Positions 12,907 to 50,362 of a DNA stretch of 64,000 bases are shown here, piece after piece. The stretch comes from an uncultured Candidatus Saccharibacteria bacterium (lineage in GTDB: Bacteria; Patescibacteriota; WWE3; UBA101185; UBA10185): positions 1,701-65,700 of the forward strand of contig CAZCAQ010000003.1 of the NCBI GenBank assembly GCA_964496905.1. Reading direction: 5' to 3'. The translations under genes were made by a program, and so were the position numbers. The notes under the pieces were generated by a model that worked only from the letters and a program-made list of their open reading frames with translations, had not been told where the DNA came from and ran no database searches. The first letter of the stretch is position 1. Each line of letters starts with the position of its first letter.

Positions 12907-12907
12907 T

Positions 12908-27238: not shown

Positions 27239-27289
27239 ACAGTGTAAATATCCAAAAACCCCAAAGTTTTATGATAATATCATTCTGCA

Positions 27290-28300: not shown

Positions 28301-28312
28301 GCTTTTAGTACA

Positions 28313-29470: not shown

Positions 29471-29479
29471 TATTCATCA

Positions 29480-30382: not shown

Positions 30383-30383
30383 A

Positions 30384-31016
30384 ATGGATTACAAAACTGA
30401 CTATAAATTCGGCACACTTATTTCTCCCGTATTTACTACAACACTAAATAGGCTCTGTTTTAATAAAAAAGTTTTGGATGTTGGATGCGGTACAGGTGAT
30501 TATATACAATTTTTCGGTAAAGACTCGCTAGGCCTAGATATTTCTCCCGAAAATATTGCAGAAGCAAAAAAAAGAGATCTAAATGTTAAAAGTTTTGACT
30601 TTAACTCGCCTACAAATCTTGATGAAAAATTTGACGTTGCATTTTGTTCACAAGTATTGGAGCATGTTGAATCGCCAATCGCCCTATTAAGGTTTATATA
30701 TAGTTCCTTAAATGAAAATGGTAGCTTACTAATTTCAGTACCAAATGAGCAAAGCATAATTCACCTAAAGTATCCTTATTTTACAAAAAACGGCAATCAT
30801 CTGTATAGTTTTTCGGTAAACAACTTAAAAGAATTATTACTTGTTGCAGGATTTGTACCCACAGAAGTAATTTATGACTACTACACTATACAAATACGCA
30901 AGTTAAAACTAGATTCAGTACTTTGCTTATTAAACTATTTACCGAGTATACTTAAAAATAGATTGGCATGGTCCTATTGGATTATAGCTACCCGATCGCC
31001 AATTAAAAACAGCTAA
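30384..31016 (+). CDS. Class I SAM-dependent methyltransferase (2 of 3)
   Basis: VLDVGCGTGD motif I; DVAFCSQVLEHV motif. Confidence 0.75.
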   Translation: MDYKTDYKFGTLISPVFTTTLNRLCFNKKVLDVGCGTGDYIQFFGKDSLGLDISPENIAEAKKRDLNVKSFDFNSPTNLDEKFDVAFCSQVLEHVESPIALLRFIYSSLNENGSLLISVPNEQSIIHLKYPYFTKNGNHLYSFSVNNLKELLLVAGFVPTEVIYDYYTIQIRKLKLDSVLCLLNYLPSILKNRLAWSYWIIATRSPIKNS

Positions 31017-31036
31017 AGTTACAATTTAGAAAGGAT

Positions 31037-31786
31037 TTGACAATGATTAGTAAAACAAGATGGAAAGAAGCTCAAGAGTTTGAACTTAATGATTGGAAAA
31101 ATGAGGCTGATATTATGCAAAAAGAGTGGGATGAAGCTTTTAAAAAATTTAACGCTTATTTTGGCGAACTTGAACAAAAGCTTGGCGTTACAGAAAATTG
31201 GAAAATTTTAGATATTGGTTGCAATGTAACATGTGTTTCTCGCATGATAAAAGAAGGCGAACATATTGGCGTTGAACCATTGGCCGATGCACTGGACTTA
31301 AACTCTAAAGTTGAAGGCATAACAATTCATAATGGAATGGGTGAAGATATGCCATTTTTAACTACTGGCTCTATAGACCTTGCCATTTGTAGAAATGTAA
31401 TTGATCATACGCATGTTCCTGAAAAAGTCATAGATGAGGTTGTTCGTGTTTTAAAGCCTGAGGGGTACTTTTTTCTTGCGTGCTATGTTTATAATCCTTT
31501 TATAACTTTTGTAAAAAACTTTGGTGAGGCCGTTAAGATTTTGCGAAATGTGGGACACCCTCACACTTACACAATGGAAACTTTAGAAGATCTTGTTAAT
31601 AAAGACTTTAAAATAATAGATCGAAAAGTTATTTACGAAGGAGTAGATCCAAACGATTTTGGTAAAATTGATGAAAACAAAGGCAATTTATCAGCAATTC
31701 AAAAATCGGTAATGTTTGTAAACGACAAAGTATTGCGGAATAAGTGGTTTGTAAGAGAATACTCCCTACTCTGTCAAAGAATATGA
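31037..31786 (+). CDS. Class I SAM-dependent methyltransferase (3 of 3)
   Basis: ILDIGCNVTC motif I variant; VLKPEGYFF motif III. Confidence 0.6.
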   Translation: MTMISKTRWKEAQEFELNDWKNEADIMQKEWDEAFKKFNAYFGELEQKLGVTENWKILDIGCNVTCVSRMIKEGEHIGVEPLADALDLNSKVEGITIHNGMGEDMPFLTTGSIDLAICRNVIDHTHVPEKVIDEVVRVLKPEGYFFLACYVYNPFITFVKNFGEAVKILRNVGHPHTYTMETLEDLVNKDFKIIDRKVIYEGVDPNDFGKIDENKGNLSAIQKSVMFVNDKVLRNKWFVREYSLLCQRI

Positions 31787-35900: not shown

Positions 35901-36306
35901 CTTTTTAGCAAAAAAAGAGCCAGAAAAAGCTGTCACACAGCAAACCATAAAGTTTGATAAGCAATCACGTACGCGGTATATAGGCAGAATAGAAAAGCCC
36001 TCAGGGAATTTTGCAATAATCTTAAAGCAAAGGTTCCACCCTGGTTGGGAACTTAAATTACTAAATAAAGTACCTGGTCGTAAATCAGTGACCCCCAAAC
36101 ATTATGCCGCAAATGGATATGCAAACGGTTGGATTGTTGATAGCTCTAGTTTTACAAAAAACGAACCACTAAATTTTGTAATAGAATTTAAGCCTCAGCG
36201 TAAAACCGAAGTTTTGATGGTTATTTCAGGGTTGTTTATTGTTGCTTTTATTTATATAGTTTTAAAGGGTATTTATTTAGACTCTAAAAAGCCAAGTACT
36301 AAATGA
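32977..36306 (+). CDS. Very large (1109 aa) membrane protein: N-terminal polytopic GT-C-like domain, about 650-aa extracytoplasmic region, C-terminal TM anchor
   Basis: Hydropathy only. Architecture reminiscent of AftD/Emb-type arabinosyltransferase layouts, but no diagnostic motif was recognised. Confidence 0.5.
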   Translation: MKQTIIKYTKTIVVPLLLYSAVTFFLLHKTLLSEGIITGSDWAIPATSLQAENYFYSSFSTWTTLGGLAGGFKSFLTDIPVSTFFFALSKAGFSGAAISKIFLSVTYVMAGLGMYYHLRYQKLGYGMAFLGGLLYITAPFFFNFTVIGWIYALLGMALFPVYLTVLDKSVREKKLYLAVAAGLIFTLAMVQSTSLLWFSVGTGSLMLSYISDRVQIKNYINSLLCVGVVLVITNIFWLVNIFGDATVTGSSNVLSSVSTGTWSRLSVLNIIRGWGTLFNYSFESAFEKSLVAFSFVMPIVLAAYSYFVKEGLKIKKLTYLTLYLFPIVLFFLGQGVVSSIPFGNVFRDGGRISVTSTFSLVALSVLGLNYLKKNKYYGLFLVLLVCLLINMHPFLRGDIWKDQEYESDIRLRTYEYNKEYDKVEAYLAQDGKTSKALYFPITSSIEDFSDNDFRGTYKEMAYLYANMAPVPGSVYISDKEKDGINGFYRSLSDEIKWNFDKVEPTIFDMVNFKYLVFYKKSMVATDWEVYSKVQKSENFEDITTKILGADHDAIAVFKIKTPSQEITSPKSVYITNSSITKDIQMQTLIKKNGVALFHPTPPIKSTSGLDIVEAERIDDYKLLNYTKKATDIWGWPSVNNVPGTFKYRLVLTKERINEFKAEDGFDKVDALLWHALKRTQEIQKYQNTDHTQQFESFSNKYEQIKTELGTIPVTERKQPFYSSVNKVGFYLKELQNIQGFENYFKDYKVFVNGLNLITCEGICYEKNIDSKTTVPIFIDETEITTQQLVFAKDTIVLNHIEEILVTDEDYKASGTFIKDFGEKNNLFSYVNIAERIVSSDIFKNLYISLVGAKIVELPSLTKGKTYRVDFDYYTSATPIKIVFIEDLLIAKEDFDVKNGKNNFSYQPVVTSMTSISPEDLDSRDAEKLAHFTARFEPTAMSKRTYLFISDGINKTNASEQKILNFKVTKEDNGRLFLAKKEPEKAVTQQTIKFDKQSRTRYIGRIEKPSGNFAIILKQRFHPGWELKLLNKVPGRKSVTPKHYAANGYANGWIVDSSSFTKNEPLNFVIEFKPQRKTEVLMVISGLFIVAFIYIVLKGIYLDSKKPSTK

Positions 36307-37907
36307 TTATATTAGGTGGTTTAGGTGATCAAATCACAACTTTAGTTTGGGGAACCGTTTCTAAGCCTTTTTTTTCATTTTTAAATTCAGGCTTTGCCGA
36401 ATTCCCACAATATGAAAAATTATTTTGGGATTTTTTGCACCCCTTGCAATCAAACCAGCCTTTAACTTGGTTCTTATACTCTGTACTAATTTCTATTCTT
36501 GGCGCAGGCGGTTATAACTTAATTTTACTTATCAATTTGTTATTAAGTTTTGTATGCGCCTTAGTATTGTTTCGCAAATACAGGTTCTCTTTTGTTTATG
36601 CAGCCATTTTCACCTTTTCTGGCTATATGTGGTCACATTTAGGTTTACATCCAGACTTGATTCAACTATGGCCGATTCCGCTATATTTGTATTTTTTGCT
36701 TGAAAAGCAGAATATGTCAGATTTAAAAAAAAGTATTGTTTTAGCTATGCTAGCTTCGCTGACGCTTGCTTTGTCTAATTACTATGGTTATTTTTTGCTA
36801 ATAACTACAGTTTTCTATGCTGTTATTTGTTTATTTACACTGTTACTCCAAAAAAACAAACTCTCGCTCAATCAAGTACGTAATGCGTTAATTTGGGTTG
36901 GTATAGTACTAGTCTTAAGTTCTACTTTTTTGTATCCCTATATCTCGGCAAACTATTTAACAAAAACAGAGAAGGTAACATTAAACACGCGATTAGCTCT
37001 TGATCGCCCGTATGCGGATTTTTTTACATTTAGTTCAAGACCTTGGTATTTTTTTATTCCATCGCCAAACAATCCTGTATATGGAAATTTATCTGAAAAT
37101 GTATTAACCAAGCTTAAAGATACAAACTATTTTTTGGCAGATGATTACTTTACAGCTGAACATGGTGCAAATTTTTTTGGGTTTATGTTTTTGACTTCAG
37201 TTTTGCTGAGTAGCGTTTTTATGTTTATTAAGACCAAAGGGGATGCGCGTGTAAAGATTGCCCAATTATTCATTTTGCTGTTCTTCCTCTTTTTGTATAT
37301 GCTTCCTCCATTTTTTACTCTTTCTGGAATAAAAATTTATACTCCAGGCCACTTAGCATTTACATATTTCCCCATGTTTAGGGTAACGGCGCGGATTTCT
37401 ATAATAATTTTGCCCATATTACTGCTAATTCTGGCAACAAACATAAACTACATCTGGCTCCATTTTGAGCGGTGGAGGAAATCACTAAAAGTAGCCATGG
37501 TTGCTATGCTACTAGTAACATTGATAGAAGTTTTTAGTATGCCTCCATTACCATCAGCACCTAGTGTCCCAGAGGTTTATACATTTCTCAATAAACATAG
37601 TGACACACGGGCAACCTTTTTTGTTTACCCCTATTCCAAAACCCAAGAGGCGCTGTATTTTTTAAGTGAACATGAAAGATTTTTACTCAATCCTCGTGAT
37701 TACAATTCTGCACAAGTTGCTTCCGAACACATTACTCTAAGATTTGCATCTGATGGTGGGTATGAAGATGTATTAAAATTAAACCCAGACTATATTGTTG
37801 TATTTAAAAACATATCACCTAAGGAAAAAGCAAAAATACTTTCAAGTAAGGAGTTTGAACTTGAACAAGAATTTTCGGATGCATATTTACTAAAAGTTGT
37901 AGAATAA
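36303..37907 (+). CDS. Polytopic membrane protein (GT-C-like), unknown specificity
   Basis: 534 aa with about 12 TM helices and a soluble C-terminus. 4-bp overlap with the upstream gene. Confidence 0.5.
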   Translation: MIILGGLGDQITTLVWGTVSKPFFSFLNSGFAEFPQYEKLFWDFLHPLQSNQPLTWFLYSVLISILGAGGYNLILLINLLLSFVCALVLFRKYRFSFVYAAIFTFSGYMWSHLGLHPDLIQLWPIPLYLYFLLEKQNMSDLKKSIVLAMLASLTLALSNYYGYFLLITTVFYAVICLFTLLLQKNKLSLNQVRNALIWVGIVLVLSSTFLYPYISANYLTKTEKVTLNTRLALDRPYADFFTFSSRPWYFFIPSPNNPVYGNLSENVLTKLKDTNYFLADDYFTAEHGANFFGFMFLTSVLLSSVFMFIKTKGDARVKIAQLFILLFFLFLYMLPPFFTLSGIKIYTPGHLAFTYFPMFRVTARISIIILPILLLILATNINYIWLHFERWRKSLKVAMVAMLLVTLIEVFSMPPLPSAPSVPEVYTFLNKHSDTRATFFVYPYSKTQEALYFLSEHERFLLNPRDYNSAQVASEHITLRFASDGGYEDVLKLNPDYIVVFKNISPKEKAKILSSKEFELEQEFSDAYLLKVVE

Positions 37908-37911
37908 ACAT

Positions 37912-39354
37912 ATGAAGAATTTTATGTTAATTTTTTTGAGCGGTTTTTTAGTTTATTTTGGCTCATTCATGTTTGTCTATTTTTCTGGACTTAACACTTT
38001 GCCAATTCAATCCGAAGATACAGTGCCCGCAATGTTTATTCCAGTTACTTTGCTAAAAGAAGGCACTTTTTATGCTGATACATACTACGATATGATGCTT
38101 GATCGGTATCCGCATCCTGATGATAGAAATGGAAAGGATGGGCTAGTTCCGTTTTATATTAAACGCATCCAAAGTAACGAAAGCGCACCTTGCCAAAAGC
38201 TTCCCGCTGGTATGACCGCGACTTGTTTTAAAACGCACTACGTCACCGCATTCACACTAACACCGGGAATACTTGCAACTCCTGTTTATTTGCCTGCACT
38301 GCTAGCTGGTATGCAGATTACTTGGGAAAATCTCATACTGTTATCACACATGGCTGCAGCTTTAATAATGTCATTTTCCGGGGGTTTTATGTACATTCTG
38401 CTTAAAAAGCATTTTTTTCCGCAACCCGATCAAGACAAAAAAGCGATCTTTTTAACCTCAATTTATCTTTTTGCCACAGTTAACTTTGCTATGCTTTCAC
38501 AGTCTTTGTGGCAACACGGAGCATTGCAGCTGTTTACAATTGCGGGGCTGATATTTTTGTTAAATGCGCTAAAAAACCAAAAACCTGCTCATTTTGCACT
38601 TTTTGGATTCTTTTTGTCGCTAGCAGTAATTACGCGTCCAACTGCGGCATTGTTTGCAGTTTTGTTATATTTACTAATTCCGCTCACACTAAAAAAGCAA
38701 GGCATAAAACCCACTATTTACACTTTTTTGGGAGTTTTGCCTGTTGTAGCATTTTTTGTTTGGTACACGCTTGTATATTACGGAGGTTTTTCAAATAATG
38801 GATACGCTTCGCAAATGGGGAACAGCTGGATCTCTCCACTTTGGGAGGGCTTTTTGGGCATTTGGGTGTCTCCTAGCAAAGGCATTTTGATTTACTCGCC
38901 TGTTTTGTTCTTTTCACTAGTTGGCGCATATAAAGCCTTTAAAAACAAATCTTTGGAAAATCGGCCACTTTTTTTGCTCAGCGTCGTAATCATCGTTTTG
39001 CACACTTTAGTAATGGGGAAGTGGAAACACTGGTTTGGAGGTTTTTCTTTTGGTTACCGCCTAGCGAGCGATGTTTTGCCATTTTTTATAATTTTGCTCG
39101 CTTCCTATGTTTTGTCTGATTTGTATGCGCGCACCCGCAAAGTGTTTTATGTATTATTTGCGTTTTCAGTTGGAGTTCAGCTGATGGGAATGGTGTTTTT
39201 TGATGGAATTTGGCACAACGCTTACGATATGGGTTTTAAGGATACTCGCTGGCTTTGGTCGTTGCAGGATTCCGAGGCTGCTTTTAATGTTCGTCGGGTG
39301 TTAGTGAAGTCAGGGTATCTGGAGCGAGCGTGTCCGGAGTGTCTGCCGAATTAG
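37912..39354 (+). CDS. Polytopic membrane protein (GT-C-like), unknown specificity
   Basis: 480 aa, multi-TM. The last about 25 codons are GC-rich and overlap the 3' end of the convergent gene. Confidence 0.5.
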   Translation: MKNFMLIFLSGFLVYFGSFMFVYFSGLNTLPIQSEDTVPAMFIPVTLLKEGTFYADTYYDMMLDRYPHPDDRNGKDGLVPFYIKRIQSNESAPCQKLPAGMTATCFKTHYVTAFTLTPGILATPVYLPALLAGMQITWENLILLSHMAAALIMSFSGGFMYILLKKHFFPQPDQDKKAIFLTSIYLFATVNFAMLSQSLWQHGALQLFTIAGLIFLLNALKNQKPAHFALFGFFLSLAVITRPTAALFAVLLYLLIPLTLKKQGIKPTIYTFLGVLPVVAFFVWYTLVYYGGFSNNGYASQMGNSWISPLWEGFLGIWVSPSKGILIYSPVLFFSLVGAYKAFKNKSLENRPLFLLSVVIIVLHTLVMGKWKHWFGGFSFGYRLASDVLPFFIILLASYVLSDLYARTRKVFYVLFAFSVGVQLMGMVFFDGIWHNAYDMGFKDTRWLWSLQDSEAAFNVRRVLVKSGYLERACPECLPN

Positions 39355-40372
39355 TTTGCAATTTTTCAAATAGTAACTTTGCAGCTTCAACTGCTTTGGT
39401 ATGTTTAGCGTCTACTTTTTTCCTAAATTTTGTATCAGTAAATCTCTTCCTGAGTAAATCCTTATTAGAAGTAACATCATGAAAGGCATCCCCAATATAG
39501 TCCAATAAGTTTCCGTCGTTAATTTTGTCTGCGGCTTCCAGATCTCCACTTAGTAGTGCAAGAGTAGAAAAACAATACAGCGTATCTCTTACTTCTTGCT
39601 TCTCGTAATCATGTTCTTTGCTTATATTAACGATTATTGTAGATATTGTGAAATAAGTGAGCAGTGCTTCCCAAATATAATCTGGTGCATCATTCCTAAT
39701 TGAACTACAGAATGCTTCAACATGTGCTTGCATTTCTTGCGCATATCTTAAGTCAAAAAGAGTCTTTTGGATTTGATCTACTAAGTCATTGTTTTCTTCC
39801 GTTTTTCTCGCCGCATCTCGTACAGCAGACAGCCTATGCTCAACTGTAGCTGAGCCTAACTTCTGCTCTTGCATTCTGTGAACTGCCTCGTGTGTCAGAT
39901 TATATCTTCTGAATTCCTCCAACCCCTCCCCTCGACTTAGGTCCAAAAGTGATCGTAGATACTCTCTGTATATTGGATGTGCATTTGAGAGCTTGTCAAA
40001 ATTAGCTTCATTAAAGGTTTGATACTGCTTTAATAATTCTGAGGATAGTTGTTCTGGTGTAGCACTAATTAAAAAATATGGGTTCTCCTCTGTTCCAATA
40101 ATGACACCTTCAAAATCGTTTGGGTCATGAAATTTCCACCTTGTGAAACTTCCATAAGTGCCTTTAGCTACCGAGGCATCGCTTAAGTTTGCATGTAATG
40201 TTCTATCTGCAACTTCAATTGATTCAGGTGAAACGGTGGCAATAGTTTGAATGGTGTCACTCACTCTAGTATTATAAGATTGGCGTAAGCAATGCACAAT
40301 CAAGTTAAATACAACATCATATGCCTCTCCAACCAGCTGTGGGATTTTCCCAATTGGACAAACAAGCGCCAC
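39284..40372 (-). CDS. Hypothetical soluble protein with an HExxH motif (LTHEAVHRMQE) and a low-complexity Thr/Pro/Asp tail
   Basis: The only minus-strand ORF inside the 45-kb plus-strand locus. 362 aa, no TM helices. Its 5' and 3' ends both overlap neighbouring ORFs, so the start is uncertain. Confidence 0.4.
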   Translation of the reverse strand: MALVCPIGKIPQLVGEAYDVVFNLIVHCLRQSYNTRVSDTIQTIATVSPESIEVADRTLHANLSDASVAKGTYGSFTRWKFHDPNDFEGVIIGTEENPYFLISATPEQLSSELLKQYQTFNEANFDKLSNAHPIYREYLRSLLDLSRGEGLEEFRRYNLTHEAVHRMQEQKLGSATVEHRLSAVRDAARKTEENNDLVDQIQKTLFDLRYAQEMQAHVEAFCSSIRNDAPDYIWEALLTYFTISTIIVNISKEHDYEKQEVRDTLYCFSTLALLSGDLEAADKINDGNLLDYIGDAFHDVTSNKDLLRKRFTDTKFRKKVDAKHTKAVEAAKLLFEKLQTNSADTPDTLAPDTLTSLTPDEH

Positions 40373-41509
40373 TCAATGTCGCGACTTGCTGCGCTTGGGC
40401 ATAACGTTCTTTTTGTTGATCCGCCCATTAATGCGGGCCGCGTGCTTTACAATCAAGTAAAGCGAAATAATTGGAATGCATACCGGCTTGTGACGCAAGT
40501 TAAAAAAGATGCGGAATCTGGGGCAAATGTATACACACCAATAAACTTGGCGCCGTTTCCACAAATAACTTCTAAACTTCATGCAAAAAGAATCAACAAA
40601 TTAGCGAAAAAGCTTTTTGATCCAAATCTCAAAACACTTCTTTGGGTTTATCATGTGCAAATTCCAGAGCTTGCCCATTATCTGGACACATTGCATCACG
40701 ATTTTTTAATTTACGACTGCGTTGATAATTATTCCGGCTTTCCCAATGTGAAAAATCCGCTTAAGGCTTCGGTTTCAAGTTCTCAAATTAGTGAGATAGA
40801 GCAAATGCTCACTACCAAGGCAAATTTAGTCTTTGCAACGGCTCCTGGACTTTACGATAAACTCCAGAAATATAACAAAAACGTGTATTTTACTCCAAAT
40901 GTAGGGGATTACGAAAAATTTAAAAATGCTCGTCAATTAAAGGATCAAACGCCAGATGAGATTAAAGCAATAAAACGGCCTCGAATTGGTTTTACGGGTG
41001 CGCTGGATGATTACAAGTTTGATTACGATTTAATGCGGAAAATTGCAACTGATCATCCAAACTATCAATTTATATTAATTGGTCCTATGGCACTAAAAGA
41101 CCGCGAAGCCAGCGATACTATAGAAAAATTTAAAGACCTGCCAAACATTCATGCGCTAGGTTCTCGCGATTTTAAACAAATCCACCTTTATTTTGCAGGC
41201 TTTGATGCTTTTATGATTCCATACGTTTTAAACGACTATACGGTTGGTGGATGTTTTCCCATGAAATTCCACGAATCCCTAGCTGCTGGTTTTCCAACAA
41301 TTGTCACTGATTTACCAGCTTACTTGCCGTTTGCAGATGTAGCTTATATTTCTAAAACTTACGATGAGTTTTCTCAAAACCTTAAAAAAGCGCTAGAAGA
41401 AGATACTCCTGAGCGTATAAAAGCTCGCCAAGCGGTGGCTAAAGAGAACAACTGGGAAGGTAAAGTTCAAAAGCTTTTATCCCTCATAAACCAACATATT
41501 ACTGTATAA
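40292..41509 (+). CDS. GT-B fold glycosyltransferase (GT1/GT4-like)
   Basis: N-terminal beta-strand YNIICLSNQLWDFP...HNVLFVDPP. C-terminal FPMKFHESLAAGFPTIVTDLP. An alternative ATG at 40376 would remove the overlap with the divergent ORF. Confidence 0.65.
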   Translation: MHNQVKYNIICLSNQLWDFPNWTNKRHSMSRLAALGHNVLFVDPPINAGRVLYNQVKRNNWNAYRLVTQVKKDAESGANVYTPINLAPFPQITSKLHAKRINKLAKKLFDPNLKTLLWVYHVQIPELAHYLDTLHHDFLIYDCVDNYSGFPNVKNPLKASVSSSQISEIEQMLTTKANLVFATAPGLYDKLQKYNKNVYFTPNVGDYEKFKNARQLKDQTPDEIKAIKRPRIGFTGALDDYKFDYDLMRKIATDHPNYQFILIGPMALKDREASDTIEKFKDLPNIHALGSRDFKQIHLYFAGFDAFMIPYVLNDYTVGGCFPMKFHESLAAGFPTIVTDLPAYLPFADVAYISKTYDEFSQNLKKALEEDTPERIKARQAVAKENNWEGKVQKLLSLINQHITV

Positions 41510-41516
41510 TTCCCAT

Positions 41517-42623
41517 ATGCGTATTCTGTACGTTATTAATTCGGGCAATTTTGGAGGCGCCGAAAAGCACATTAAAGACTTGACTCAAGGAATGACCCAA
41601 AAAGGCCATGAAGTCTTTATTTGGTGTCTTGCAGGGCCTATGATTGAGCTTTACAAGGCCGCTGGTGCGCAGGTTACGGCAATCTCTCCCCGTTTTGAAA
41701 TAGACCCTTTTTACGTCCAAAAACTCAAAAAATTCCTAAAAGAGCAAAAAATCGATGTAGTGCATGTTCACGACAAATCGGGTGCAAATGCGCTAATGTC
41801 CGCATATTTGGCAAAAACGCCCGTTCGCGTTAGCAATGTTCATACTCCGCTTTCTCAATGGCAAATAAATCTAATTAAAAAAGCCATAAATTTGGTCGCA
41901 TATTTTTTTGTAACGCGTCTTTTATCTCAACAAGAAATTGCCATTACAAAGGAAGTAAAACGCATAAAAGTGTCTGAAGGCATTCCAGCAAGCAAAATTA
42001 CCGTAATTCCAAATTATGCCGAATTACCCACAAACGCGTCTCACGATAAAAAAGTGCAGTTTTTGCAAAAATGGGTTTTTGTAGACAAACTAGTCATAGG
42101 TGTTGTTGGGCGCACTTCAGCAGAAAAAGGCCAAGATTTGTTAATTAAGGCGTTTTACAAGCTTTCACACGAATTTGATCACATACGTCTTGCAATTATT
42201 GGCGGAGGTCCTTTGCAAGAAAACTATCAAACCATGCTTAAGGAGCTTAAACTTTCAGAAAAGTCCGTAATTACCGGAATTTTCCCTGACGAAGATAAAT
42301 CAACTCTTTTTTCAACCTTAAATATTTTTGTATTTCCATCTCGTGCGGAAGGTTTTGGCTATGTTCCGTTAGAAGCTTTATCTTTGGGAATTCCTGTAAT
42401 TGCATCAGGACTCCCTGTTTTAAAGGAAGTTTTGGGAGAACACGCTATGTATTTTGAGCCGGAAAACGTTGAAAGCCTTCAAGAGCAATTGAGATACGCA
42501 ATTACAAATTATGAGGAACTTAAAAGCCAGCAGGAAGGTACAAACTGGATCATTCAAAAATACGGATTTGAGAAATTTATTAGTTCTTACCTAAATTTAT
42601 ATGAGGAGCTAGCGCGCAAATGA
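41517..42623 (+). CDS. GT4-family glycosyltransferase
   Basis: EGFGYVPLEALSLGIPVIASGLP. Confidence 0.75.
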   Translation: MRILYVINSGNFGGAEKHIKDLTQGMTQKGHEVFIWCLAGPMIELYKAAGAQVTAISPRFEIDPFYVQKLKKFLKEQKIDVVHVHDKSGANALMSAYLAKTPVRVSNVHTPLSQWQINLIKKAINLVAYFFVTRLLSQQEIAITKEVKRIKVSEGIPASKITVIPNYAELPTNASHDKKVQFLQKWVFVDKLVIGVVGRTSAEKGQDLLIKAFYKLSHEFDHIRLAIIGGGPLQENYQTMLKELKLSEKSVITGIFPDEDKSTLFSTLNIFVFPSRAEGFGYVPLEALSLGIPVIASGLPVLKEVLGEHAMYFEPENVESLQEQLRYAITNYEELKSQQEGTNWIIQKYGFEKFISSYLNLYEELARK

Positions 42624-43747
42624 AAGTAGCCTTTTGTGGCAGAACAGACTTGTTTAAATATAAAGGAGGGGATGCCGTACAAATGGAGCAAACGGCAAAA
42701 GAGCTAGAAAAGCTTGGCGTGCACGTTGACATAAAAACTCATTGGGACTTTGACTATGCACAATATGAATTAATTCACATATTCCAGCTGGATTGGGTTT
42801 CGGAAAACTATTTGTATGCAGAGGCAGCGCAAAAAGCGGGTAAAAAAATTGTACTTTCTCCAATTCATCATAATGTAAATGAAGTAAAAGCTTACGATGA
42901 CAATTTTGTATTTGGTTATCGCAGACTTTCGTCCTTGGTATTACGCAATCAATTTCACCGCGATACGCTAAAAATCTTTTACCGAGCTCTTTCCAACCCA
43001 GAAAAACGAATTCCTGCGTTTTACGCAATAACTTATGGACTTAAGAATCTGCACAAAAAAACCATAAAAGCCTCAAGCAAGGTTTTAGTTCAAACTCACT
43101 TGGAAGCCGAAGATTTAAAAAAGGCTTACACCACAGATTTTGAATGGGTTTTAGTTCCAAATGGTGTTGGTGACGTTTTTTTGTCACAACCAGAAATGCT
43201 TAGCAATTTTCTGCCATTTTCTGATTACATTTTAAGCGTAGGCCGTATTGAAGCCCGAAAAAATCAACTTAACATTATTGAAGCGGTAAAAAAACTCCGC
43301 TTACAAACTGGGCAAGACCTTAAACTTGTTTTTGTTGGTCAATTTAGTCTTTCTCATAAAGAGTATACACAGCACTTTAAGGAACAACTTTCGCAAAACC
43401 CATGGATTACTCACATTGAAAAGGTCGACTATGAAAAAATGCCTTCAGTATACAAATTTGCAAAAGTTGCAGTTTCAGCAAGTTGGTTTGAAACAACTGG
43501 ATTAACCAGTTTAGAGGCCTTGTATTGCGGTTCAAATGCTGTTGCATCGGGAAAAAGAGCTAATGAGTTGTTAGGTTCGCAAGTTTCATATTGTGACCCT
43601 TCTAGTGTAGAATCTATTTCAAGCGCCATTTTGACGCAGCTTCAAAAACCAAGACCAGTAATTTCTAAAGATTTTAAAGCACAGTATACTTGGAAGAATG
43701 CTGCTGAAAAAACTCTTAAGGTATATACGGATATAATTGATGAATAA
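42620..43747 (+). CDS. GT4-family glycosyltransferase
   Basis: ETTGLTSLEALYCGSNAVAS. Confidence 0.7.
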   Translation: MKVAFCGRTDLFKYKGGDAVQMEQTAKELEKLGVHVDIKTHWDFDYAQYELIHIFQLDWVSENYLYAEAAQKAGKKIVLSPIHHNVNEVKAYDDNFVFGYRRLSSLVLRNQFHRDTLKIFYRALSNPEKRIPAFYAITYGLKNLHKKTIKASSKVLVQTHLEAEDLKKAYTTDFEWVLVPNGVGDVFLSQPEMLSNFLPFSDYILSVGRIEARKNQLNIIEAVKKLRLQTGQDLKLVFVGQFSLSHKEYTQHFKEQLSQNPWITHIEKVDYEKMPSVYKFAKVAVSASWFETTGLTSLEALYCGSNAVASGKRANELLGSQVSYCDPSSVESISSAILTQLQKPRPVISKDFKAQYTWKNAAEKTLKVYTDIIDE

Positions 43748-46646
43748 TTACGAATTACTTATTGGAATAGCTATTTTTTCAGTGGGATTTTATGCCCTTG
43801 TCAGAGATTTTAAACTCTTTATCTATATTTTGCTCTTTTCAAGCGTTTTAATTCACAAAGAAATGTTTAGCCTGTATATGTGGGACTTTATGCCAATTCG
43901 CTTTTTAATGCTTGCTTTGTCTTTTTATGTAGTTGGGGCCTTCTTTTTAGCACTTTTTACTGCGCTGAGAGAAAGGAATATGCATCAACGACTTGAGTTA
44001 ACTAAAATTTCTCAGTACTTAAGGGATCCTTTTATCATTAGTTTGACTTTGCTCTGGCTAGTAAGAGGTTTTTCTCTAGTGTTTTCAAAAGATATTAGGT
44101 CTAGTGTGGAGCTTTATGCCTTTTTTACATCTATTTATTTGGCATCTCTTTTTATTTACATAAGGTTAAAATCAAGGCCTTTGCACGTTATATTGTATCT
44201 GGATTTTTATATTGCCATTGTTTTTGCACTCTGTATGTTTGGGTTTTTACAATTATTTTTAAGTTCCAATTATAACTTTACTATTGGAGCATTTTGGCAA
44301 ATTCCCGGACATAGCCCACGCGTTGGAAGTCTTTTTTGGGATGTAAATCACTTTGGAGCGTTTATTGCCTCATTATTTTTATACGGATGTGCTAGGTTTT
44401 TGGCAGTTTCAGGCTTAAAACGCAAAATACTTTACGGCATTTTACTTTTGCCAATTCCCATAATTTTGTATTTAACTAATTCACGCAGCTCTTTATTGCT
44501 ATTAATCAGTGCTTCTGCGCTTTTTGGCTTTATTGTATTGTTCAAAAAAATCGGTAACAAAGCTTTTGGCCTTACAGCATTAGTGGCCCTTTTTGCATTT
44601 TTGACCTTTTTTTATACATATTCAGATGAAAACTCTAAAGTTAGCAAGGTTATTCGTAGTAACTTACATTACAGAATTGATTCTTTTGATTCGCACTTTT
44701 TATTGCTATCTGGTGCTTCGGAAGTATTTACAGAAAATCCTATATTAGGAGGTGGCTACGGGAGTTTTTATGCCCAATTTATGGAAACCTCCATTTCATC
44801 AGAATATCTTAGGCGTGATCCAGCTGGTTTATTAACAAAAGTTCCTGCACACACAATTTGGGGTGAGGTAGCTTCTGAAACGGGCATGTTAGGTTTTTCC
44901 GCTTTTCTGTTTTTATGTCTAATAATTACAGCTGTACCTTTTTATAATTTTTTGGTCAGTAACTCGTATAAGGATTATTTAGTTCATGGCGCCATATTTT
45001 CTTCAATAATAGGCTATTTTGTCGCTGGCATATTTTATTCTTATAATTCTGAATTTTTTTGGCTTGTCTTAATTTTATACACAACGTATGGAATAGCAAA
45101 ATTGATTCAAAACATGCCTGTTGTAATTAATAATCCAAATCCAAGCTTTACCTTTGGTTTGTTAAAAAAGGCAGTAATGTTTATTGAAGTTAAAATAAAC
45201 GCAGGATTTATTTTACTTGGACTTTTAACATTTTCATTAATATTTATAAATTTGGGGAAAAACACTTTAATTACATGGGACGAAGCAATATACGGAAAAA
45301 TTGCTAAAAATATTGTTCAAACAGGTGAGTGGTTAACTTTGCAATGGAAGGTAGGTTCCACTTGGTTTGAAAAGCCCCCACTTTACTTTTGGTCAACGGC
45401 ATTTTTTATGAAAATCTTTGGTATAAACGAATTTGCAGTTAGATTAACAAGTGCGCTTAGTGGCTTTGGTTCTATTATGGTTTTAACCTACTTTGCAAAA
45501 AAAATATATGGGCGAAGCGTAGGGTATTTAGCAGGATTTATTCTATTGACCACTTTTCAGTTTTTGTATTACGCACGAACCGGCATGCTTGACGTTACTC
45601 TCACTTTTTTTATTACTACTGCTTTGGTAATTTACTTTCTTGGTGCAAAAATGCTTAGGACATTTGTACTAGCGGGTGTATTTGTAGGATTAGCAGTGCT
45701 AACAAAAGGTGTAGTAGGTTTTTTACCTTTACTAATAATACTAATCTTTGAATTAGTTATGTTGCCAAAAACCAAAAAATTAAGCGAACTAGTTAACGTT
45801 TTTTACATTTTTGTATTCTCAGCAATAGTTTTTATGCCATGGCATGCCTATATGCTGGGTTTATATGGTAATAAGTTTTACGACAACTACATTGTTTATC
45901 ATGTTTTGCAACGTGCTTCAACAGCAATTGAAGGAAAAGGCCAGCCCTTTTGGTGGTATTTTGTAGTAATGAAAGTTAGTATGCGCTTATGGTTTTTGGC
46001 ATTACTGGTAGCGCTTCCTTTTACTACCACTTGTGTGTTATTTAGAAAAAAAATGGAGAAGTTTAACTTTTTGTTTTCAAATAATGAGATACGTGGGTTA
46101 ATATTTACATTAGTCTGGTTTATAGTTGTAGCACTTTTCTTTTCATCAGCGATCTCTAAACTTATTTGGTACATAATTCCTATATATGTTCCAGCTGCAC
46201 TGATTTGCGCATTTACAATAGTTGTAATTTTAAGAAACTTTTTCTCAAAGTTTGCTAAAAATATAGTTGATGAAATGGTTTTTGTAACGATCTTTTTTAT
46301 TTTTATGTTCACTTTTACTTACTTTTATGTTGAAAAAGGTCGCGTTTATACAAGTGACTTAAATTATGCTCAGGCCTTTGTACTTAAGCAGTCAAGTGTT
46401 AAGTATCCAAATGAGACTGTGCTTGTCGATAGAATTGAATCCCCAGTCACATTTTACTATCGCGATGGGCCTTATGCAGAAGTTGATTTTCAACAAATCC
46501 GAGCTTCTCTTAGTAAAAGCTCAGAAAAGCCTACAATTTTTATTACTAATAAAAAAAGATTTGTTCAGCTTGAAAAAGAATTTTTGGGACTTTCCAATGT
46601 AGATCAGGCTGGAGATTTTATACTTGCCTATTATCTTAAACAATGA
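43737..46646 (+). CDS. Fusion protein: N-terminal O-antigen-ligase-like (Wzy_C) polytopic domain + C-terminal PMT_2/ArnT-family GT-C domain
   Basis: Residues about 1-450 are multi-TM with a NSRSSLLLLISASALFG...GGGYGSF region typical of the O-antigen ligase/Wzy_C family. Residues about 480-969 have the PMT/ArnT first-loop signature LITWDEAIYGKIAKNIVQTGEWLTLQW...EKPPLYFW (DE motif). Confidence 0.55.
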   Translation: MMNNYELLIGIAIFSVGFYALVRDFKLFIYILLFSSVLIHKEMFSLYMWDFMPIRFLMLALSFYVVGAFFLALFTALRERNMHQRLELTKISQYLRDPFIISLTLLWLVRGFSLVFSKDIRSSVELYAFFTSIYLASLFIYIRLKSRPLHVILYLDFYIAIVFALCMFGFLQLFLSSNYNFTIGAFWQIPGHSPRVGSLFWDVNHFGAFIASLFLYGCARFLAVSGLKRKILYGILLLPIPIILYLTNSRSSLLLLISASALFGFIVLFKKIGNKAFGLTALVALFAFLTFFYTYSDENSKVSKVIRSNLHYRIDSFDSHFLLLSGASEVFTENPILGGGYGSFYAQFMETSISSEYLRRDPAGLLTKVPAHTIWGEVASETGMLGFSAFLFLCLIITAVPFYNFLVSNSYKDYLVHGAIFSSIIGYFVAGIFYSYNSEFFWLVLILYTTYGIAKLIQNMPVVINNPNPSFTFGLLKKAVMFIEVKINAGFILLGLLTFSLIFINLGKNTLITWDEAIYGKIAKNIVQTGEWLTLQWKVGSTWFEKPPLYFWSTAFFMKIFGINEFAVRLTSALSGFGSIMVLTYFAKKIYGRSVGYLAGFILLTTFQFLYYARTGMLDVTLTFFITTALVIYFLGAKMLRTFVLAGVFVGLAVLTKGVVGFLPLLIILIFELVMLPKTKKLSELVNVFYIFVFSAIVFMPWHAYMLGLYGNKFYDNYIVYHVLQRASTAIEGKGQPFWWYFVVMKVSMRLWFLALLVALPFTTTCVLFRKKMEKFNFLFSNNEIRGLIFTLVWFIVVALFFSSAISKLIWYIIPIYVPAALICAFTIVVILRNFFSKFAKNIVDEMVFVTIFFIFMFTFTYFYVEKGRVYTSDLNYAQAFVLKQSSVKYPNETVLVDRIESPVTFYYRDGPYAEVDFQQIRASLSKSSEKPTIFITNKKRFVQLEKEFLGLSNVDQAGDFILAYYLKQ

Positions 46647-47767
46647 AAGTTGCAATAATTCACGACGATTTTATTCAATATGGTGGTGCAGAACAATTGG
46701 TTCTAGCCCTTTGGGAGATATGGCCCAATGCAGTTTTGTATACAAGTTACGTAACTAATGATTGGGCAAAAATTCTTAAAGAAAAAAATATTGAATATAA
46801 AACGTCATTCATGCAAAAGTTGCCATATAAAAAGAAATTAAATAAATACTACGCTGGGCTTATGCTTTATCCCCTTGCCTTTGAGTCATTTGACTTTACG
46901 GGTTTTGATTTGGTGATTTCATCTTCTTCTAGGTTTGCACATTGTATTGTTACAAAACCATCAACTTTGCATATTTCATATATTAATTCGCCAGGACGCA
47001 TGTTTTGGGAGTTTTGGGATTATTTTGAGAACTTTAGTTTTTCACGCCGAAATATTATTAAAAGGCTCTACATAAATTTGTTAAAAGCAGTGGCTAGTTA
47101 TTATAGAACTTGGGACTATTACTCTTCATTTCGCGCCGATTACCTTATTGCTAATTCATCGATTCCTCATAACCGTATTAAAAAATTTTATGACAAGGAA
47201 AGCACAATAATTTATCCATTTGTTAATACAAAATATTTTGAAAATAAACCAAAATCAAAAGCTAACTTTTTTCTTATAATAACCAGGCTGGTTTCGTGGA
47301 AAAAAGTAGATATAGCAATAGATGCTTTTATTAAGAATGGTCAAAATTTGAGAATAATTGGTGATGGCCCAGAACTTCAACCTTTAAAAGCAAAAGCCGC
47401 AGGTTATAAAAATATAGAGTTACTTGGATATGTGAGTGATGATGTGAAAATAGATCTGCTATGTTCATGTTGTGCTTTAATTAACACACAGCTAGAGGAC
47501 TTTGGTATTGCCCCATTAGAAGCTATGGCGGCTGGAAAACCTGTTTTAGCATACGGAAGAGGTGGCGCGCTAGAAACAGTTATAGAAGGAAAAACTGGTG
47601 CATTTTATTACGAACAAACTCCTCAGGCTTTAAATGCCGCATTGGAGACTTTTGATCCTGAGTCTTATTTAGTAACCGATTGTGTTTATCAAGCTCGGCG
47701 CTTTGATAAAGATGTTTTTCTTAGTAAGATCAAAGCCTTTGTTGATAGTGTATACTTAGGGAGCTAA
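46643..47767 (+). CDS. GT4-family glycosyltransferase
   Basis: FGIAPLEAMAAGKPVLAYGRGG. Confidence 0.7.
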   Translation: MKVAIIHDDFIQYGGAEQLVLALWEIWPNAVLYTSYVTNDWAKILKEKNIEYKTSFMQKLPYKKKLNKYYAGLMLYPLAFESFDFTGFDLVISSSSRFAHCIVTKPSTLHISYINSPGRMFWEFWDYFENFSFSRRNIIKRLYINLLKAVASYYRTWDYYSSFRADYLIANSSIPHNRIKKFYDKESTIIYPFVNTKYFENKPKSKANFFLIITRLVSWKKVDIAIDAFIKNGQNLRIIGDGPELQPLKAKAAGYKNIELLGYVSDDVKIDLLCSCCALINTQLEDFGIAPLEAMAAGKPVLAYGRGGALETVIEGKTGAFYYEQTPQALNAALETFDPESYLVTDCVYQARRFDKDVFLSKIKAFVDSVYLGS

Positions 47768-47774
47768 TTCCAAT

Positions 47775-48413
47775 ATGGACTTATACGATTTTTTAAAAAG
47801 AATACTAGATATTGTGGGTGCGCTTGTAGGGCTCCTTATTTTTTCACCAATTTTTGCGGTTGCAGCTGTTTTTATTAAACTTGCATCTCCGGGAGGACCA
47901 ATTTTTGCGGATATACCATCAAGGGTAAGCAGAGGAAAAGAATTTAAAATGTACAAATTTAGATCTATGATTCCAAATGCGCACAATTGGCTTTTGGAAC
48001 ATCCAGAGTGGCATGAAAAGTACAAAGCCAACAATTACAAAATTTCTCCAGACGAAGATCCGCGCTTTATAAAAGGTGCAAAATTTATGAGAAAATATAG
48101 CATTGATGAGCTTCCTCAATTTTTAAATGTTTTGTTTGGCGATATGAGTTTAGTAGGTCCCAGAGCTTACTATCCTTTTGAATTAAAAGAGCAAAGGGAA
48201 AAGTTCCCGGAAGCTGGTCCCTACATTGACGAAGTCTTTCAGATAAAGCCCGGCATTACGGGTGTTTGGCAAGTTTCTGGAAGATCGAGCATTGGTTTTT
48301 TGGAGCGAATAAAAATGGATGCCGGATATGCAAAAAAGCGCTCAATATTGTATGATTTACTAATAATTCTAAAAACGCCGCTAGCGGTGTTGGCTGCTAA
48401 AGGAGCAAACTAA
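47775..48413 (+). CDS. Small polyprenyl-phosphate sugar-1-phosphate transferase (bacterial sugar transferase family; PglC/WbaP-C-terminal type initiating phosphoglycosyltransferase)
   Basis: Single N-terminal re-entrant helix, then PGGPIFADIPSRVSRGKEFKMYKFRSM ... DELPQFLNVLFGDMSLVGPRA, the conserved core of the family. Confidence 0.8.
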   Translation: MDLYDFLKRILDIVGALVGLLIFSPIFAVAAVFIKLASPGGPIFADIPSRVSRGKEFKMYKFRSMIPNAHNWLLEHPEWHEKYKANNYKISPDEDPRFIKGAKFMRKYSIDELPQFLNVLFGDMSLVGPRAYYPFELKEQREKFPEAGPYIDEVFQIKPGITGVWQVSGRSSIGFLERIKMDAGYAKKRSILYDLLIILKTPLAVLAAKGAN

Positions 48414-48415
48414 AT

Positions 48416-50362
48416 ATGAATCAAGCAAAAGTATGGAAACCAGGACAAACAAGTAATTCTAAGGTAGGTGGTGTCAGTAAATATAAAAGGCATATTGGTG
48501 TAGGTGGGGCTATACTTATAGGTGTACTGTCTGTTTTTGTTTTAGTTACTTATTTCTTCTTTGCACGCCCCGTTTTAGCTTTAAGAAGTAATGTAAAAGA
48601 CCTTCAAGAGGATTTTAACAATAGTAAACAGGCCCTTGTAGAGCGGGATTTGGTTGCTTTTAATGCAAGTTTAGATGAGACTGAAAAAGACCTTGAAGAA
48701 CTAAGGACCACCAGAGACGAAAAGCTTGGTTGGGCTAAAAACTTTCCAAAGCTTAAGATTTACTACAAAGATTCGGAAAACTTTATTAACGCAGGTCAGC
48801 ATGCTGTAAACGCAGGTAGAGAGTTCTCGGTAATTGTTGAACCTTTTTCCTCTGCATTAGGTCTAAAAACAAAAAATACTCAAAACGGTGCCCCAGCGCC
48901 AGAGGGTGAAGACGTTGGCTTAATGGAAGCTTTTTCTGCATGGGTAGCTGCCATGCCTTTGGTTGCTGCAGAATCAGATCCAGTAATTAAGGAATTAACT
49001 TTAATGGGCGATCAGCTAGCTAAGGTTGATGCGCAGAATTATCCAGAAGATTTTAGAGGTTTTCCAGTAAGAGAGACTATTTTACAGTCTCAAAACACAC
49101 TTACGCAGCTTAACGATTACGCACCAGACATTAAAAAAGCACTCGTTATAATCCCAGGACTTCTAGGTATTGGCGGTGAAGAAAAACGCTATATGGTTAT
49201 TATGCAAAATGACAAAGAAGTTCGTGCAACTGGTGGTTTTTGGACATATTTAGCAACCTTTAAGGTAAGTAATGGGCTTTTAAATTCTGACTTTACTTCA
49301 TACAATTCATACTATGTTGATGATGTATTAAATCAAATAGATGCGTATCACACTTTTCCAACTGTACCTCCAACTTACAACAAGCACTTAAAGGTAGAAA
49401 GAATGTTTGCCCGCGACGCAAACGTGTCACCAGACCTTCCAACTTCTGTAGATCAGTTTTTGGAATTTTGGACATTAGCTGCACCACTTTCTCCAAATGA
49501 ATTTAAACCTATTGATGGCGTAATCGTTATTGATACAAAGGTATTGGAAGAACTTTTGGAAATTACTGGCCCAGCTACTGTAAATGGTTTTACATATAAC
49601 AAAGACAATGTTGTACTTGAACTTGAAAAATTGGCAAGCCTTGCTTTAAAAGAGCAAGTTAATAGAAAAAAAGTTTTGGGTGATTTAATGGAACAAATGT
49701 TAATTAACGTGTTTGAGTCCGATAAAAATCTTTGGCCAAAACTCGTAGATAAAGGGTTTAACCTAATTGGTCGAAAGCACATTGCCATGGTTATGATGGA
49801 CCCAGAGGCACAGGCCTTAATTGAAAAACACAACTTTGCTGGTCGTATAGTTGATCCTGTAGTTGGTGATTATGCATATGTAGTCCAAACCAACCTAGGT
49901 GGTGATAAGACTAACTGGTTTGTCACTAAAGACGTCCAGCACGATTTATCACGTGAAAACGGTAAATGGAAAAGAACAGTTACTATCAATTACAAATACA
50001 CAAGGCCTTCAGATGAATTTGCCTCATTTGTAACAGTTTACCGTGAATGGGTAAGGTTATATGTGCCAAAGGGCGCAGAGTTAATTGCCTTGACAGGGTC
50101 CGATGATGAACCTGGTACTGGTGAGGAAAGAAACAAAACTTATTTTCATGGGTTCTTTACATTAGCACCTGATGCCACAAAAACTGTAAAGTTTGAGTAC
50201 TATTTACCTGAGGACACAATTAAAGACGGCGAGTACAAGTTGTACATTCAAAAACAAGTCTCTATAGATAAAGAAAAGCATGTTGTAAATGCAGGTGGTA
50301 AAACTCAAGAAATAATTCTTGATATTTTGGACGGTAAGTTTTCGGCAAAAGTAGCAGAGTAG
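48416..50362 (+). CDS. N-terminally membrane-anchored extracytoplasmic protein of unknown function (architecture resembles DUF4012-type envelope proteins)
   Basis: One TM helix near residues 27-49, then about 600 soluble residues. No catalytic motif recognised. Confidence 0.45.
   Translation: MNQAKVWKPGQTSNSKVGGVSKYKRHIGVGGAILIGVLSVFVLVTYFFFARPVLALRSNVKDLQEDFNNSKQALVERDLVAFNASLDETEKDLEELRTTRDEKLGWAKNFPKLKIYYKDSENFINAGQHAVNAGREFSVIVEPFSSALGLKTKNTQNGAPAPEGEDVGLMEAFSAWVAAMPLVAAESDPVIKELTLMGDQLAKVDAQNYPEDFRGFPVRETILQSQNTLTQLNDYAPDIKKALVIIPGLLGIGGEEKRYMVIMQNDKEVRATGGFWTYLATFKVSNGLLNSDFTSYNSYYVDDVLNQIDAYHTFPTVPPTYNKHLKVERMFARDANVSPDLPTSVDQFLEFWTLAAPLSPNEFKPIDGVIVIDTKVLEELLEITGPATVNGFTYNKDNVVLELEKLASLALKEQVNRKKVLGDLMEQMLINVFESDKNLWPKLVDKGFNLIGRKHIAMVMMDPEAQALIEKHNFAGRIVDPVVGDYAYVVQTNLGGDKTNWFVTKDVQHDLSRENGKWKRTVTINYKYTRPSDEFASFVTVYREWVRLYVPKGAELIALTGSDDEPGTGEERNKTYFHGFFTLAPDATKTVKFEYYLPEDTIKDGEYKLYIQKQVSIDKEKHVVNAGGKTQEIILDILDGKFSAKVAE

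Follow-up and report, generated by a model that had tools for sequence, protein, structure and literature searches.

A conserved fusion of a WaaL-like Wzy_C module with an ArnT/PMT_2-type module in WWE3 bacteria, probably finishing a cell-surface glycoconjugate

Introduction

Ligases of the WaaL type and the protein glycosylation enzyme PglL have catalytic Arg and His residues in common: R215, R288 and H338 of E. coli WaaL correspond to R224, R298 and H349 of PglL, and the role of H338/H349 has been described for both enzymes (PMC3643930), as has that of His-313 in CmWaaL (PMC10920833). O-ligases carry two Arg and this His; in the inverting polymerases of the same clan, Asp or Glu replaces the His (PMC10920833). 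In WadA, a ligase module is accompanied by a GT25 glycosyltransferase module, which adds the core sugar onto which the ligase module attaches O-antigen (PMC9938171, PMC10920833). In three-component systems, glycosyltransferases of the GT-C class decorate glycans linked to undecaprenyl diphosphate (Und-PP) before ligation (PMC11127046). Here we describe a gene in which a WaaL-like Wzy_C module is fused to an ArnT/PMT_2-type module. It lies in a 64,000-nucleotide stretch of contig CAZCAQ010000003.1 (assembly GCA_964496905.1, positions 1,701 to 65,700 of the forward strand), which we call the window, and its relatives belong to bacteria labelled candidate division WWE3 or 'Patescibacteria group'. 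The initial annotation of the window had noticed the fusion and did not recognise its architecture as a described one. No description of a Wzy_C-PMT_2/ArnT fusion was found in the searchable literature, and the databases hold hundreds of such proteins under generic names. No literature on WWE3 glycoconjugates was found beyond Kantor et al. 2013.

We propose that the protein is one polytopic enzyme with two active transferase modules at the membrane's outer face, which together end the surrounding Wzx-dependent glycan pathway. The probability of this proposal is put at roughly 0.55. In more general terms, the fusion probably finishes a cell-surface glycoconjugate.

Gene and domain architecture

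The open reading frame (ORF) at 43737..46646 (+) runs without interruption. Codon 1 is TTG (43737) and codon 2 is ATG (43740), which gives 969 aa from the TTG or 968 aa from the ATG. The ATG is the likely start because an identical database protein (P0001), also of 968 aa, begins there. Residues are numbered from this ATG, except for Pfam coordinates, which follow the 969-aa numbering. The start of the gene overlaps the stop of an upstream GT4 glycosyltransferase gene by 8 nt (ATGAATAA), and its stop overlaps the start codon of a downstream GT4 gene (ATGA). These overlaps with both neighbours indicate that the fusion is translationally coupled to them, the usual sign of an operon. The parts of the gene are as follows (TM, transmembrane).

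43740..46646 (+): complete fusion gene (968 aa), translationally coupled to the GT4 gene on either side
43740..45113 (+): N module (residues 1-458), a Wzy_C / GT-C_B bundle resembling WaaL, 12 TM helices predicted
44484..44486 (+): R249 in LTNSR, candidate counterpart of E. coli WaaL R215 (LTQTR), from a non-significant hhalign alignment
44850..44894 (+): WaaL-type His motif, H371-T-x9-G382-x-x-G385 (VPAHTIWGEVASETGMLG)
45114..45200 (+): unconserved linker on the cytoplasmic side (residues 459-487)
45201..46364 (+): C module, residues 488-875, ArnT/PMT_2-type GT-C_A transmembrane domain
46365..46643 (+): C-terminal extracytoplasmic alpha/beta domain, residues 876-968, located where ArnT has its periplasmic domain

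In Pfam, Wzy_C (PF04932) matches residues 237-391 with 44.7 bits (gathering cutoff 31.7; E 1.6e-11), PMT_2 matches residues 546-703 with 66 bits (cutoff 26.1) and PMT matches residues 493-705 with 60.6 bits (cutoff 22.7). All three scores exceed their gathering cutoffs, which bears out the initial view that two modules are joined in one protein, the N half being Wzy_C-like and the C half PMT/PMT_2-like. The PMT/ArnT signature that had been pointed out in the C half also holds: the motifs TWDEAIYGKIAKN and EKPPLYFW are both found, the DE loop and the EKPP motif being intact. In NCBIfam, the N half has no match and the C half resembles ArnT below threshold, with 105.7 bits against an equivalog cutoff of 567. 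Such a score indicates a member of the family and not an ArnT orthologue, so that neither the sugar nor the acceptor can be transferred from ArnT. Pfam finds no match to PglL_A (PF15864) or Wzy_C_2 in the fusion at E<=1, and no GT25 or other soluble glycosyltransferase domain; the partner module is PMT_2. The protein belongs to the Wzy_C and PMT_2 superfamilies and is not an orthologue of WaaL, PglL or ArnT.

Conservation of the fusion

The fusion is genuine and conserved. When 5.8 billion proteins were searched with it, 265 relatives were found. The best 120 of the 265 are 927-1056 aa long and 38-72% identical to the window protein over 95-100% coverage; all have Wzy_C and PMT_2, and nearly all have PMT as well. 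In a scan of one genome per species, relatives occur in 96 genomes, and 80 of the 96 loci were retrieved, including that of the closed genome CP006914.1 (RAAC2_WWE3_1). A single ORF matches both halves in 79 of the 80 (ORF/phmmer census), several being truncated by contig ends. The sole exception, L070, is a metagenome-assembled genome (MAG) with frameshifts throughout the region. The full-length fusion is thus present in at least 120 protein clusters and in the genomes of at least 80 species, at 35-72% identity and in the same gene order. The Logan assembly of SRR16481186, made independently, encodes an identical protein in the same context. Within WWE3 this architecture is the norm, not a rarity, and the fusion is a single-copy, syntenic, core envelope gene.

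In the 61-sequence alignment, residues 1-458 and residues 488-875 have median identities of 42% and 44%, respectively, to the window protein; residues 876-968 are less conserved (27%). The linker is usually 16 aa long in relatives and 30 aa in the window protein, and the alignment passes through it in frame. Source databases name the relatives 'glycosyltransferase family 39 protein', 'phospholipid carrier-dependent glycosyltransferase' or 'O-antigen ligase', and the JGI name is '4-amino-4-deoxy-L-arabinose transferase-like glycosyltransferase/O-antigen ligase'. Many TPA MAGs with a WWE3-type locus are titled 'uncultured Candidatus Saccharibacteria bacterium', and L073 bears the title 'Candidatus Woesearchaeota archaeon'; the synteny that these loci share suggests that such titles are placeholders or binning errors.

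The two halves also occur apart. In a distant lineage (L085/L086, on a 285-kb JGI contig; the protein is found on 6 contigs), they are adjacent separate genes in the same order. The arrangement there is GT4, a Wzy_C protein of 460 aa, its stop, 55 nt, an ATG, a PMT_2 protein of 497 aa, GT4, a second Wzy_C and Wzx. The split PMT_2 protein is 34% identical to the C half of the window protein (E 2e-69). The split genes and the fusion together provide Rosetta-stone evidence that both activities work together. Relatives at a still greater distance have shorter fusions (about 850 aa) with the same PGT-DUF4012-RecO synteny (PGT, phosphoglycosyltransferase). In L088 and L089, these shorter fusions are directly followed by a small GT2, whose best NCBIfam match, far below threshold, is ArnC, the enzyme that makes ArnT's donor.

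Second copies of Wzy_C occur in several lineages. In L085 (8001..14911, JGI 3300009105), one of the two Wzy_C genes lies beside PMT_2 and the other beside Wzx, a naturally occurring case where experiments could separate a ligase role from a polymerase role. A second Wzy_C paralogue, about 740 aa long, comes after the fusion in L066, L069, L071, L072, L073, L075 and L080 (in L080 at 13014..15233). Its N half retains the His motif and its polytopic C-terminal extension has no PMT_2 match; it may be a decayed or repurposed second fusion. A related 749-aa protein, P0158, lacks the WDE motif.

The N module

An AlphaFold2 model of the fusion, made from the 61-sequence alignment, has a mean pLDDT (per-residue confidence) of 89.6 and a pTM (overall fold confidence) of 0.90. 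For a two-module chain of 968 residues, this pTM would imply that both helix bundles are packed as one rigid unit. In a Foldseek search against the PDB, the N half of the model matches WaaL (7TPG, E 6e-6).

The signature His of the ligases is retained. The WaaL motif is said to be defined as H[NSQ]x9Gxx[GTY]. In E. coli K-12 WaaL (NC_000913.3) it reads H338-N-x9-G349-xx-G352, and in the window protein H371-T-x9-G382-xx-G385, with the same spacing and with T after the His where the definition has N, S or Q. H371, G382 and G385 are invariant in the 61-sequence and 29-sequence alignments, and the motif is kept in distant paralogues too. The His371 is thus invariant at the acceptor-activating position where inverting BP-Pol polymerases (clan GT-C1) have Asp or Glu. 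An invariant E376 lies 5 residues from H371 and may be a polymerase-like acid close by. The other invariant residues of the outer face of the N module are H39 K40 E41, R194 D201 N203 H204, R249, R312 D314 H319 and E438.

One of the ligase Arg residues has a candidate counterpart. R249 in LTNSR, invariant among the aligned relatives, aligns with R215 in LTQTR of E. coli WaaL, although the hhalign comparison with the single WaaL sequence is non-significant (probability 0.8%) and gives a register hint only. In E. coli WaaL, R215 binds the phosphate of Und-PP, R215 and R288 being the two conserved Arg that bind the diphosphate. R194 is a further invariant Arg in an outer loop.

The C module

The C half of the model matches ArnT (5F15, E 5e-15, Foldseek against the PDB), and ArnT is also the only PDB sequence match of the fusion (E 8e-42, profile search). 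In both sequence and fold, ArnT stands closer to the C half than PMT does. In a phmmer alignment to 5EZM, whose chain numbering is the published ArnT numbering +3, D514/E515 correspond to ArnT D55/E56, E544/K545 to E84/K85, D618 to D158, R725 to R270 and Y811 to Y345. All of these are invariant in the 61 sequences except E515, which is kept in at least 90%. In ArnT, D55 and D158 reportedly serve catalysis, and K85 and R270 are said to bind undecaprenyl phosphate.

Membrane topology

From model helices and hydropathy, the N module has 12 TM helices and is N-in/C-in like WaaL, with a large loop (296-372) outside. Lys and Arg number about 14 in some 70 residues of short inside loops versus 4 in 55 residues of short outside loops, and all invariant polar residues of the module sit in outside loops. 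The linker is predicted to be cytoplasmic, and the first GT-C helix (488-502) then to lead out to the WDEAIY loop. With an N-in/C-in N module followed by an N-in GT-C module, both catalytic centres can face the outer side, and the fusion is topologically coherent.

Gene neighbourhood

The window from about 3.8 to 50.4 kb is one long plus-strand glycan region. Around the fusion, the order is u1109 (polytopic, with a large soluble part), u534, u480, a minus-strand ORF, three GT4 genes, the fusion, GT4, PGT, DUF4012 and RecO. The conserved partners, and a candidate synthase gene from the beginning of the region, are as follows.

3805..4929 (+): GT2 fused to a GtrA/DPMS TM domain, candidate polyprenyl-phosphate-sugar synthase
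40292..41509, 41517..42623, 42620..43747 (+): three upstream GT4 genes, syntenic in most related loci with enough flank
46643..47767 (+): downstream GT4, conserved partner
47775..48413 (+): small Bac_transf PGT, conserved partner
48416..50362 (+): DUF4012 single-pass protein, conserved partner; RecO is next

After RecO come some housekeeping genes (a DinB-type polymerase, a class II tRNA synthetase, RelA/SpoT) and then a PBP2-type transpeptidase, with mraZ/mraW between in relatives. Among loci of sufficient extent, most preserve the core order u480-GT4x3-fusion-(Wzx)-GT4-PGT-DUF4012-RecO. A convergent gene for a Wzx-type flippase lies directly 3' of the fusion in about 60 of 81 loci. It is absent there in the window and in a few relatives, including L056, the closest genome locus; Wzx-like genes are found elsewhere in the window, at 15013 and 22206. 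The cluster thus holds the parts of a Wzx-dependent pathway, namely the PGT, five or six GT4s, usually a Wzx, further GT-C proteins (u534 and u480 are GT-C_A-like) and DUF4012. The fused Wzy_C is the only WaaL/Wzy-class module of the conserved core. Neither u1109 nor DUF4012 had a useful match when searched by sequence against the PDB.

The product of 3805..4929 is a candidate supplier of donors to the region's GT-C modules and is not tied to the fusion in particular. Small GT2s resembling ArnC, DPM or AglJ are encoded at 4973, 12211 and 23452, with all NCBIfam scores far below the cutoffs. The joining of a candidate synthase to a GtrA-like putative flippase module at 3805..4929 is another fusion of three-component-system parts in the region.

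The minus-strand ORF at 39284..40372, between u480 and the first GT4, encodes an acidic soluble protein of 362 aa with no family match. It splits an adjacency that is direct in related loci, its local GC content is 0.40 versus about 0.34-0.37, and no credible homologue was found in 80 related loci. It looks like a lineage-specific insertion.

Proposed function and its rivals

The bifunctional proposal fits the facts that both catalytic signatures are invariant, both sites are placed outside and the gene lies in a PGT/GT4/Wzx cluster. In outline, an oligosaccharide would be begun by the small PGT on undecaprenyl phosphate, lengthened in the cytoplasm by the five or six GT4 enzymes and flipped by Wzx. 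The N module would then bind the Und-PP-linked glycan and move it en bloc to an acceptor other than lipopolysaccharide (LPS), which may be a lipid, a protein or a wall component. The C module would take one sugar from a polyprenyl-monophosphate donor, made by a GT2 of the ArnC/DPM type, and place it on the same acceptor or on the glycan, the fusion coupling both steps. Either the C module would create or decorate the substrate that the N module ligates, in the manner of WadA or of three-component systems, or it would cap the product. A WWE3 genome without lpxC and kdsA has no LPS genes and is unusually rich in glycosyltransferases (PMC3812714), and the lack of lpxC and kdsA makes a lipid A-core acceptor very unlikely.

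The initial annotation had suggested a bifunctional enzyme that ligates and then extends a glycan in the periplasm. What is seen agrees with en-bloc transfer joined to the addition of one sugar, both on the outer side, but the order was a guess, and the precedents of WadA and the three-component systems run the opposite way, suggesting 'GT first, ligase second'. The word periplasm is also loose: in view of the missing LPS genes (PMC3812714), the site would be the outer face of the cytoplasmic membrane. A more specific form of this order would have the ArnT/PMT-like module put a single sugar, taken from a lipid phosphate, on a protein Ser/Thr or on a membrane lipid, and the WaaL-like module ligate the flipped Und-PP-oligosaccharide onto that sugar. 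This version is doubtful. If true, it would be how LPS-less, ultra-small WWE3 cells anchor their main surface glycan, and it would be a two-step route to an O-linked glycoconjugate with two GT-C-class centres in one protein, undescribed for any O-oligosaccharyltransferase or ligase.

Several points weigh against the proposal. The N half, used as a 29-sequence profile, has no match among all PDB chains even at E<=10. With its single sequence as query, only 224 of 1.84 billion cluster representatives match at E<=1e-3; these two results indicate that it is a narrow, divergent branch of Wzy_C. The second Arg, R288 of E. coli WaaL, has no secure counterpart. The weak hhalign alignment places the invariant H319 there, and R312, 7 residues (two helical turns) upstream of it, is invariant only in the fused WWE3 family. 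The Wzy_C paralogues of two-copy lineages all keep the His motif, which is therefore non-discriminating within the subfamily. No donor GT2 in the window is specifically tied to the fusion. Finally, Pfam's Wzy_C family includes polymerases, and there is no separate Wzy-like protein in the conserved cluster, u534 having proved to be GT-C_A.

The last two points lead to the main rival, in which the N module is the repeat-unit polymerase of a Wzx/Wzy pathway. DUF4012 would perhaps be an auxiliary or co-polymerase-like protein, the GT-C module would add a side-branch sugar to the Und-PP polymer, and attachment would be by something else or would not occur. Since the cluster has a PGT, GT4s and Wzx and no other GT-C_B or Wzy-like protein, the N module is the sole polymerase candidate if the glycan is a repeat-unit polymer. 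The fold match to WaaL cannot tell a ligase from a polymerase because no polymerase is among the PDB matches. Moreover, three-component GT-C systems classically decorate Und-PP-linked polymers (PMC11127046), and DUF4012 is associated with capsular and extracellular polysaccharide (CPS/EPS) clusters of Gram-positive bacteria (PMC6744442). We nevertheless consider a polymerase unlikely. The His is invariant and lies precisely within the WaaL motif, at a site that is Asp/Glu in the inverting polymerases of this CAZy clan (PMC10920833). The family keeps about 40% identity across the whole class, whereas Wzy polymerases are typically hypervariable, and an oligosaccharide made by five or six GT4s may need no polymerisation.

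A special case of the ligase proposal is a protein O-oligosaccharyltransferase of the PglL/PilO/WsaB kind, which would act on pilins, S-layer or other surface proteins, with the PMT-like module priming Ser/Thr or extending the glycan. The initial annotation favoured such a function, and the present analysis gives it no specific support. PglL and PilO do belong to the Wzy_C family, their Arg and His residues are those of WaaL (PMC3643930), and WWE3 bacteria have no LPS, encode sortase substrates as well as type IV pili, and were suggested to produce glycoproteins or an S-layer that is glycosylated (PMC3812714). However, the PglL_A and Wzy_C_2 signatures are absent, which excludes only the PglL subtype since PilO/PglS-type enzymes also lack them. 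The Pfam-scanned ORFs at 12.9-50.4 kb and the syntenic loci showed no recognisable pilin or S-layer family, and the scanned cluster genes no other evident target, which is a weak negative; the C half is nearest to ArnT, an enzyme with a lipid acceptor. Telling WaaL from an O-oligosaccharyltransferase has historically needed experiments (PMC3643930). On balance a protein acceptor of this kind seems rather improbable.

It is very improbable that one module is a non-catalytic scaffold, degenerate and kept for membrane assembly or substrate presentation in a monofunctional protein. The C-terminal extension is diverged in distant relatives: the Wzy_C module is followed by a polytopic extension without PMT_2 match in paralogues some 700-750 aa long and in a protein of 852 aa (the WDE motif is missing from P0158, the one examined). 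In the window protein and its 60 aligned relatives, on the other hand, the ArnT-type and WaaL-type key residues are invariant and the halves are equally conserved. Least of all is the fusion a frameshift artefact, two neighbouring genes joined by a sequencing or assembly error, as the split pair of another lineage and the fragmented ORFs of the poor MAG L070 might suggest: the comparative data refute it, as the same continuous ORF recurs across many studies, in some 80 species genomes (one of them closed) and at least 120 protein clusters, an independent assembly gives the identical protein and the linker aligns in frame.

Other features of the glycan region

Polytopic proteins of GT-C type are unusually dense at 10659..22152 and 32977..39354. 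They comprise u519 (AEWGDSY/DDEKRPPLF, no Pfam match), a DUF2079 protein (12908..15016), u563 (weak PMT_2), PMT_2 proteins at 19073 and 20533, probably u1109, and u534, u480 and the C module of the fusion. The two domains of MprF type are present as separate genes: LPG_synthase_C at 133..834, at the start of the window, and a stand-alone, flippase-like LPG_synthase_TM at 16494..17438, the latter within the glycan cluster, flanked by a Wzx-like gene and by GT-C genes. Set amid glycosyltransferases at 25547..31786 are three SAM methyltransferases in a row and a B12-binding radical SAM protein that resembles HpnJ at a score far below cutoff; this suggests methylated or otherwise modified sugars.

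Comparison with known systems

Both modules represent well-known enzyme classes; their fusion is the part for which the searched literature has no description. Together with its split counterpart, it links a lipid-PP-oligosaccharide transferase with a lipid-P-monosaccharide transferase and predicts their direct functional coupling. Such a natural coupling of two GT-C donor chemistries is no conceptual surprise, and current concepts stand. The identity of the acceptor would reveal the major glycoconjugate of the episymbiont-like WWE3 and how it is anchored, and a naturally coupled en-bloc and single-sugar transferase could interest glycoengineers.

The pathway logic is analogous to that of mycobacterial arabinogalactan and lipoarabinomannan (LAM), where a PGT and cytoplasmic glycosyltransferases likewise build a lipid-linked primer and several GT-C_A enzymes (AftA-D, Emb) extend it outside. 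The candidates for such extension in the window are u534, u480, the C module of the fusion and probably u1109. In mycobacteria, however, the final transfer is by an LCP enzyme and not by a WaaL-like module, and the analogy implies no orthology.

Compared with ArnT (GT83; 5EZM/5F15) and the three-component enzymes of PMT_2/GT39, the C module does not conserve the Zn-site histidines in place. It is far below the ArnT equivalog cutoff, its host has no lipid A, and it sits behind a WaaL-like module. PglL, PilO (TfpO), PglS and WsaB likewise have a Wzy_C core with conserved Arg and His and transfer en bloc from Und-PP. None of them is fused to a GT-C module, and the fusion has neither PglL_A or Wzy_C_2 nor a neighbouring target gene. 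WsaB-type enzymes serve S-layer glycosylation in monoderm bacteria. WsaB is listed among the protein O-oligosaccharyltransferases (PMC2943079). Of WaaL itself (CAZy GT121; Cupriavidus 7TPG/7TPJ, and E. coli), the solved structures have no sequence-level match to the fusion, and the second WaaL Arg is not securely conserved in it. The fusion has two extra invariant loops, HKE at 39-41 and PRVGSxFWDVNH at 193-204; it comes from a lineage without lipid A-core, so that the acceptor must differ, and it is joined to a GT-C module.

The nearest precedent appears, by functional analogy, to be WadA of Brucella and Mesorhizobium (GT25 + GT121; PMC9938171, PMC10920833), the only described bifunctional ligase that was found. 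There too, a WaaL-type ligase of 12 TM helices and a glycosyltransferase of the same pathway are in one polypeptide. The two proteins have no sequence relationship beyond the Wzy_C core, and the analogy is functional only. In WadA, the extra module is a soluble, cytoplasmic GT25 at the N-terminus, which uses a nucleotide sugar and works at the membrane's opposite side, with lipid A-core as its substrate. In the fusion, by contrast, it is a polytopic GT-C module at the C-terminus, which would use a lipid-phosphate sugar on the same, outer side as the ligase module, in an organism without LPS.

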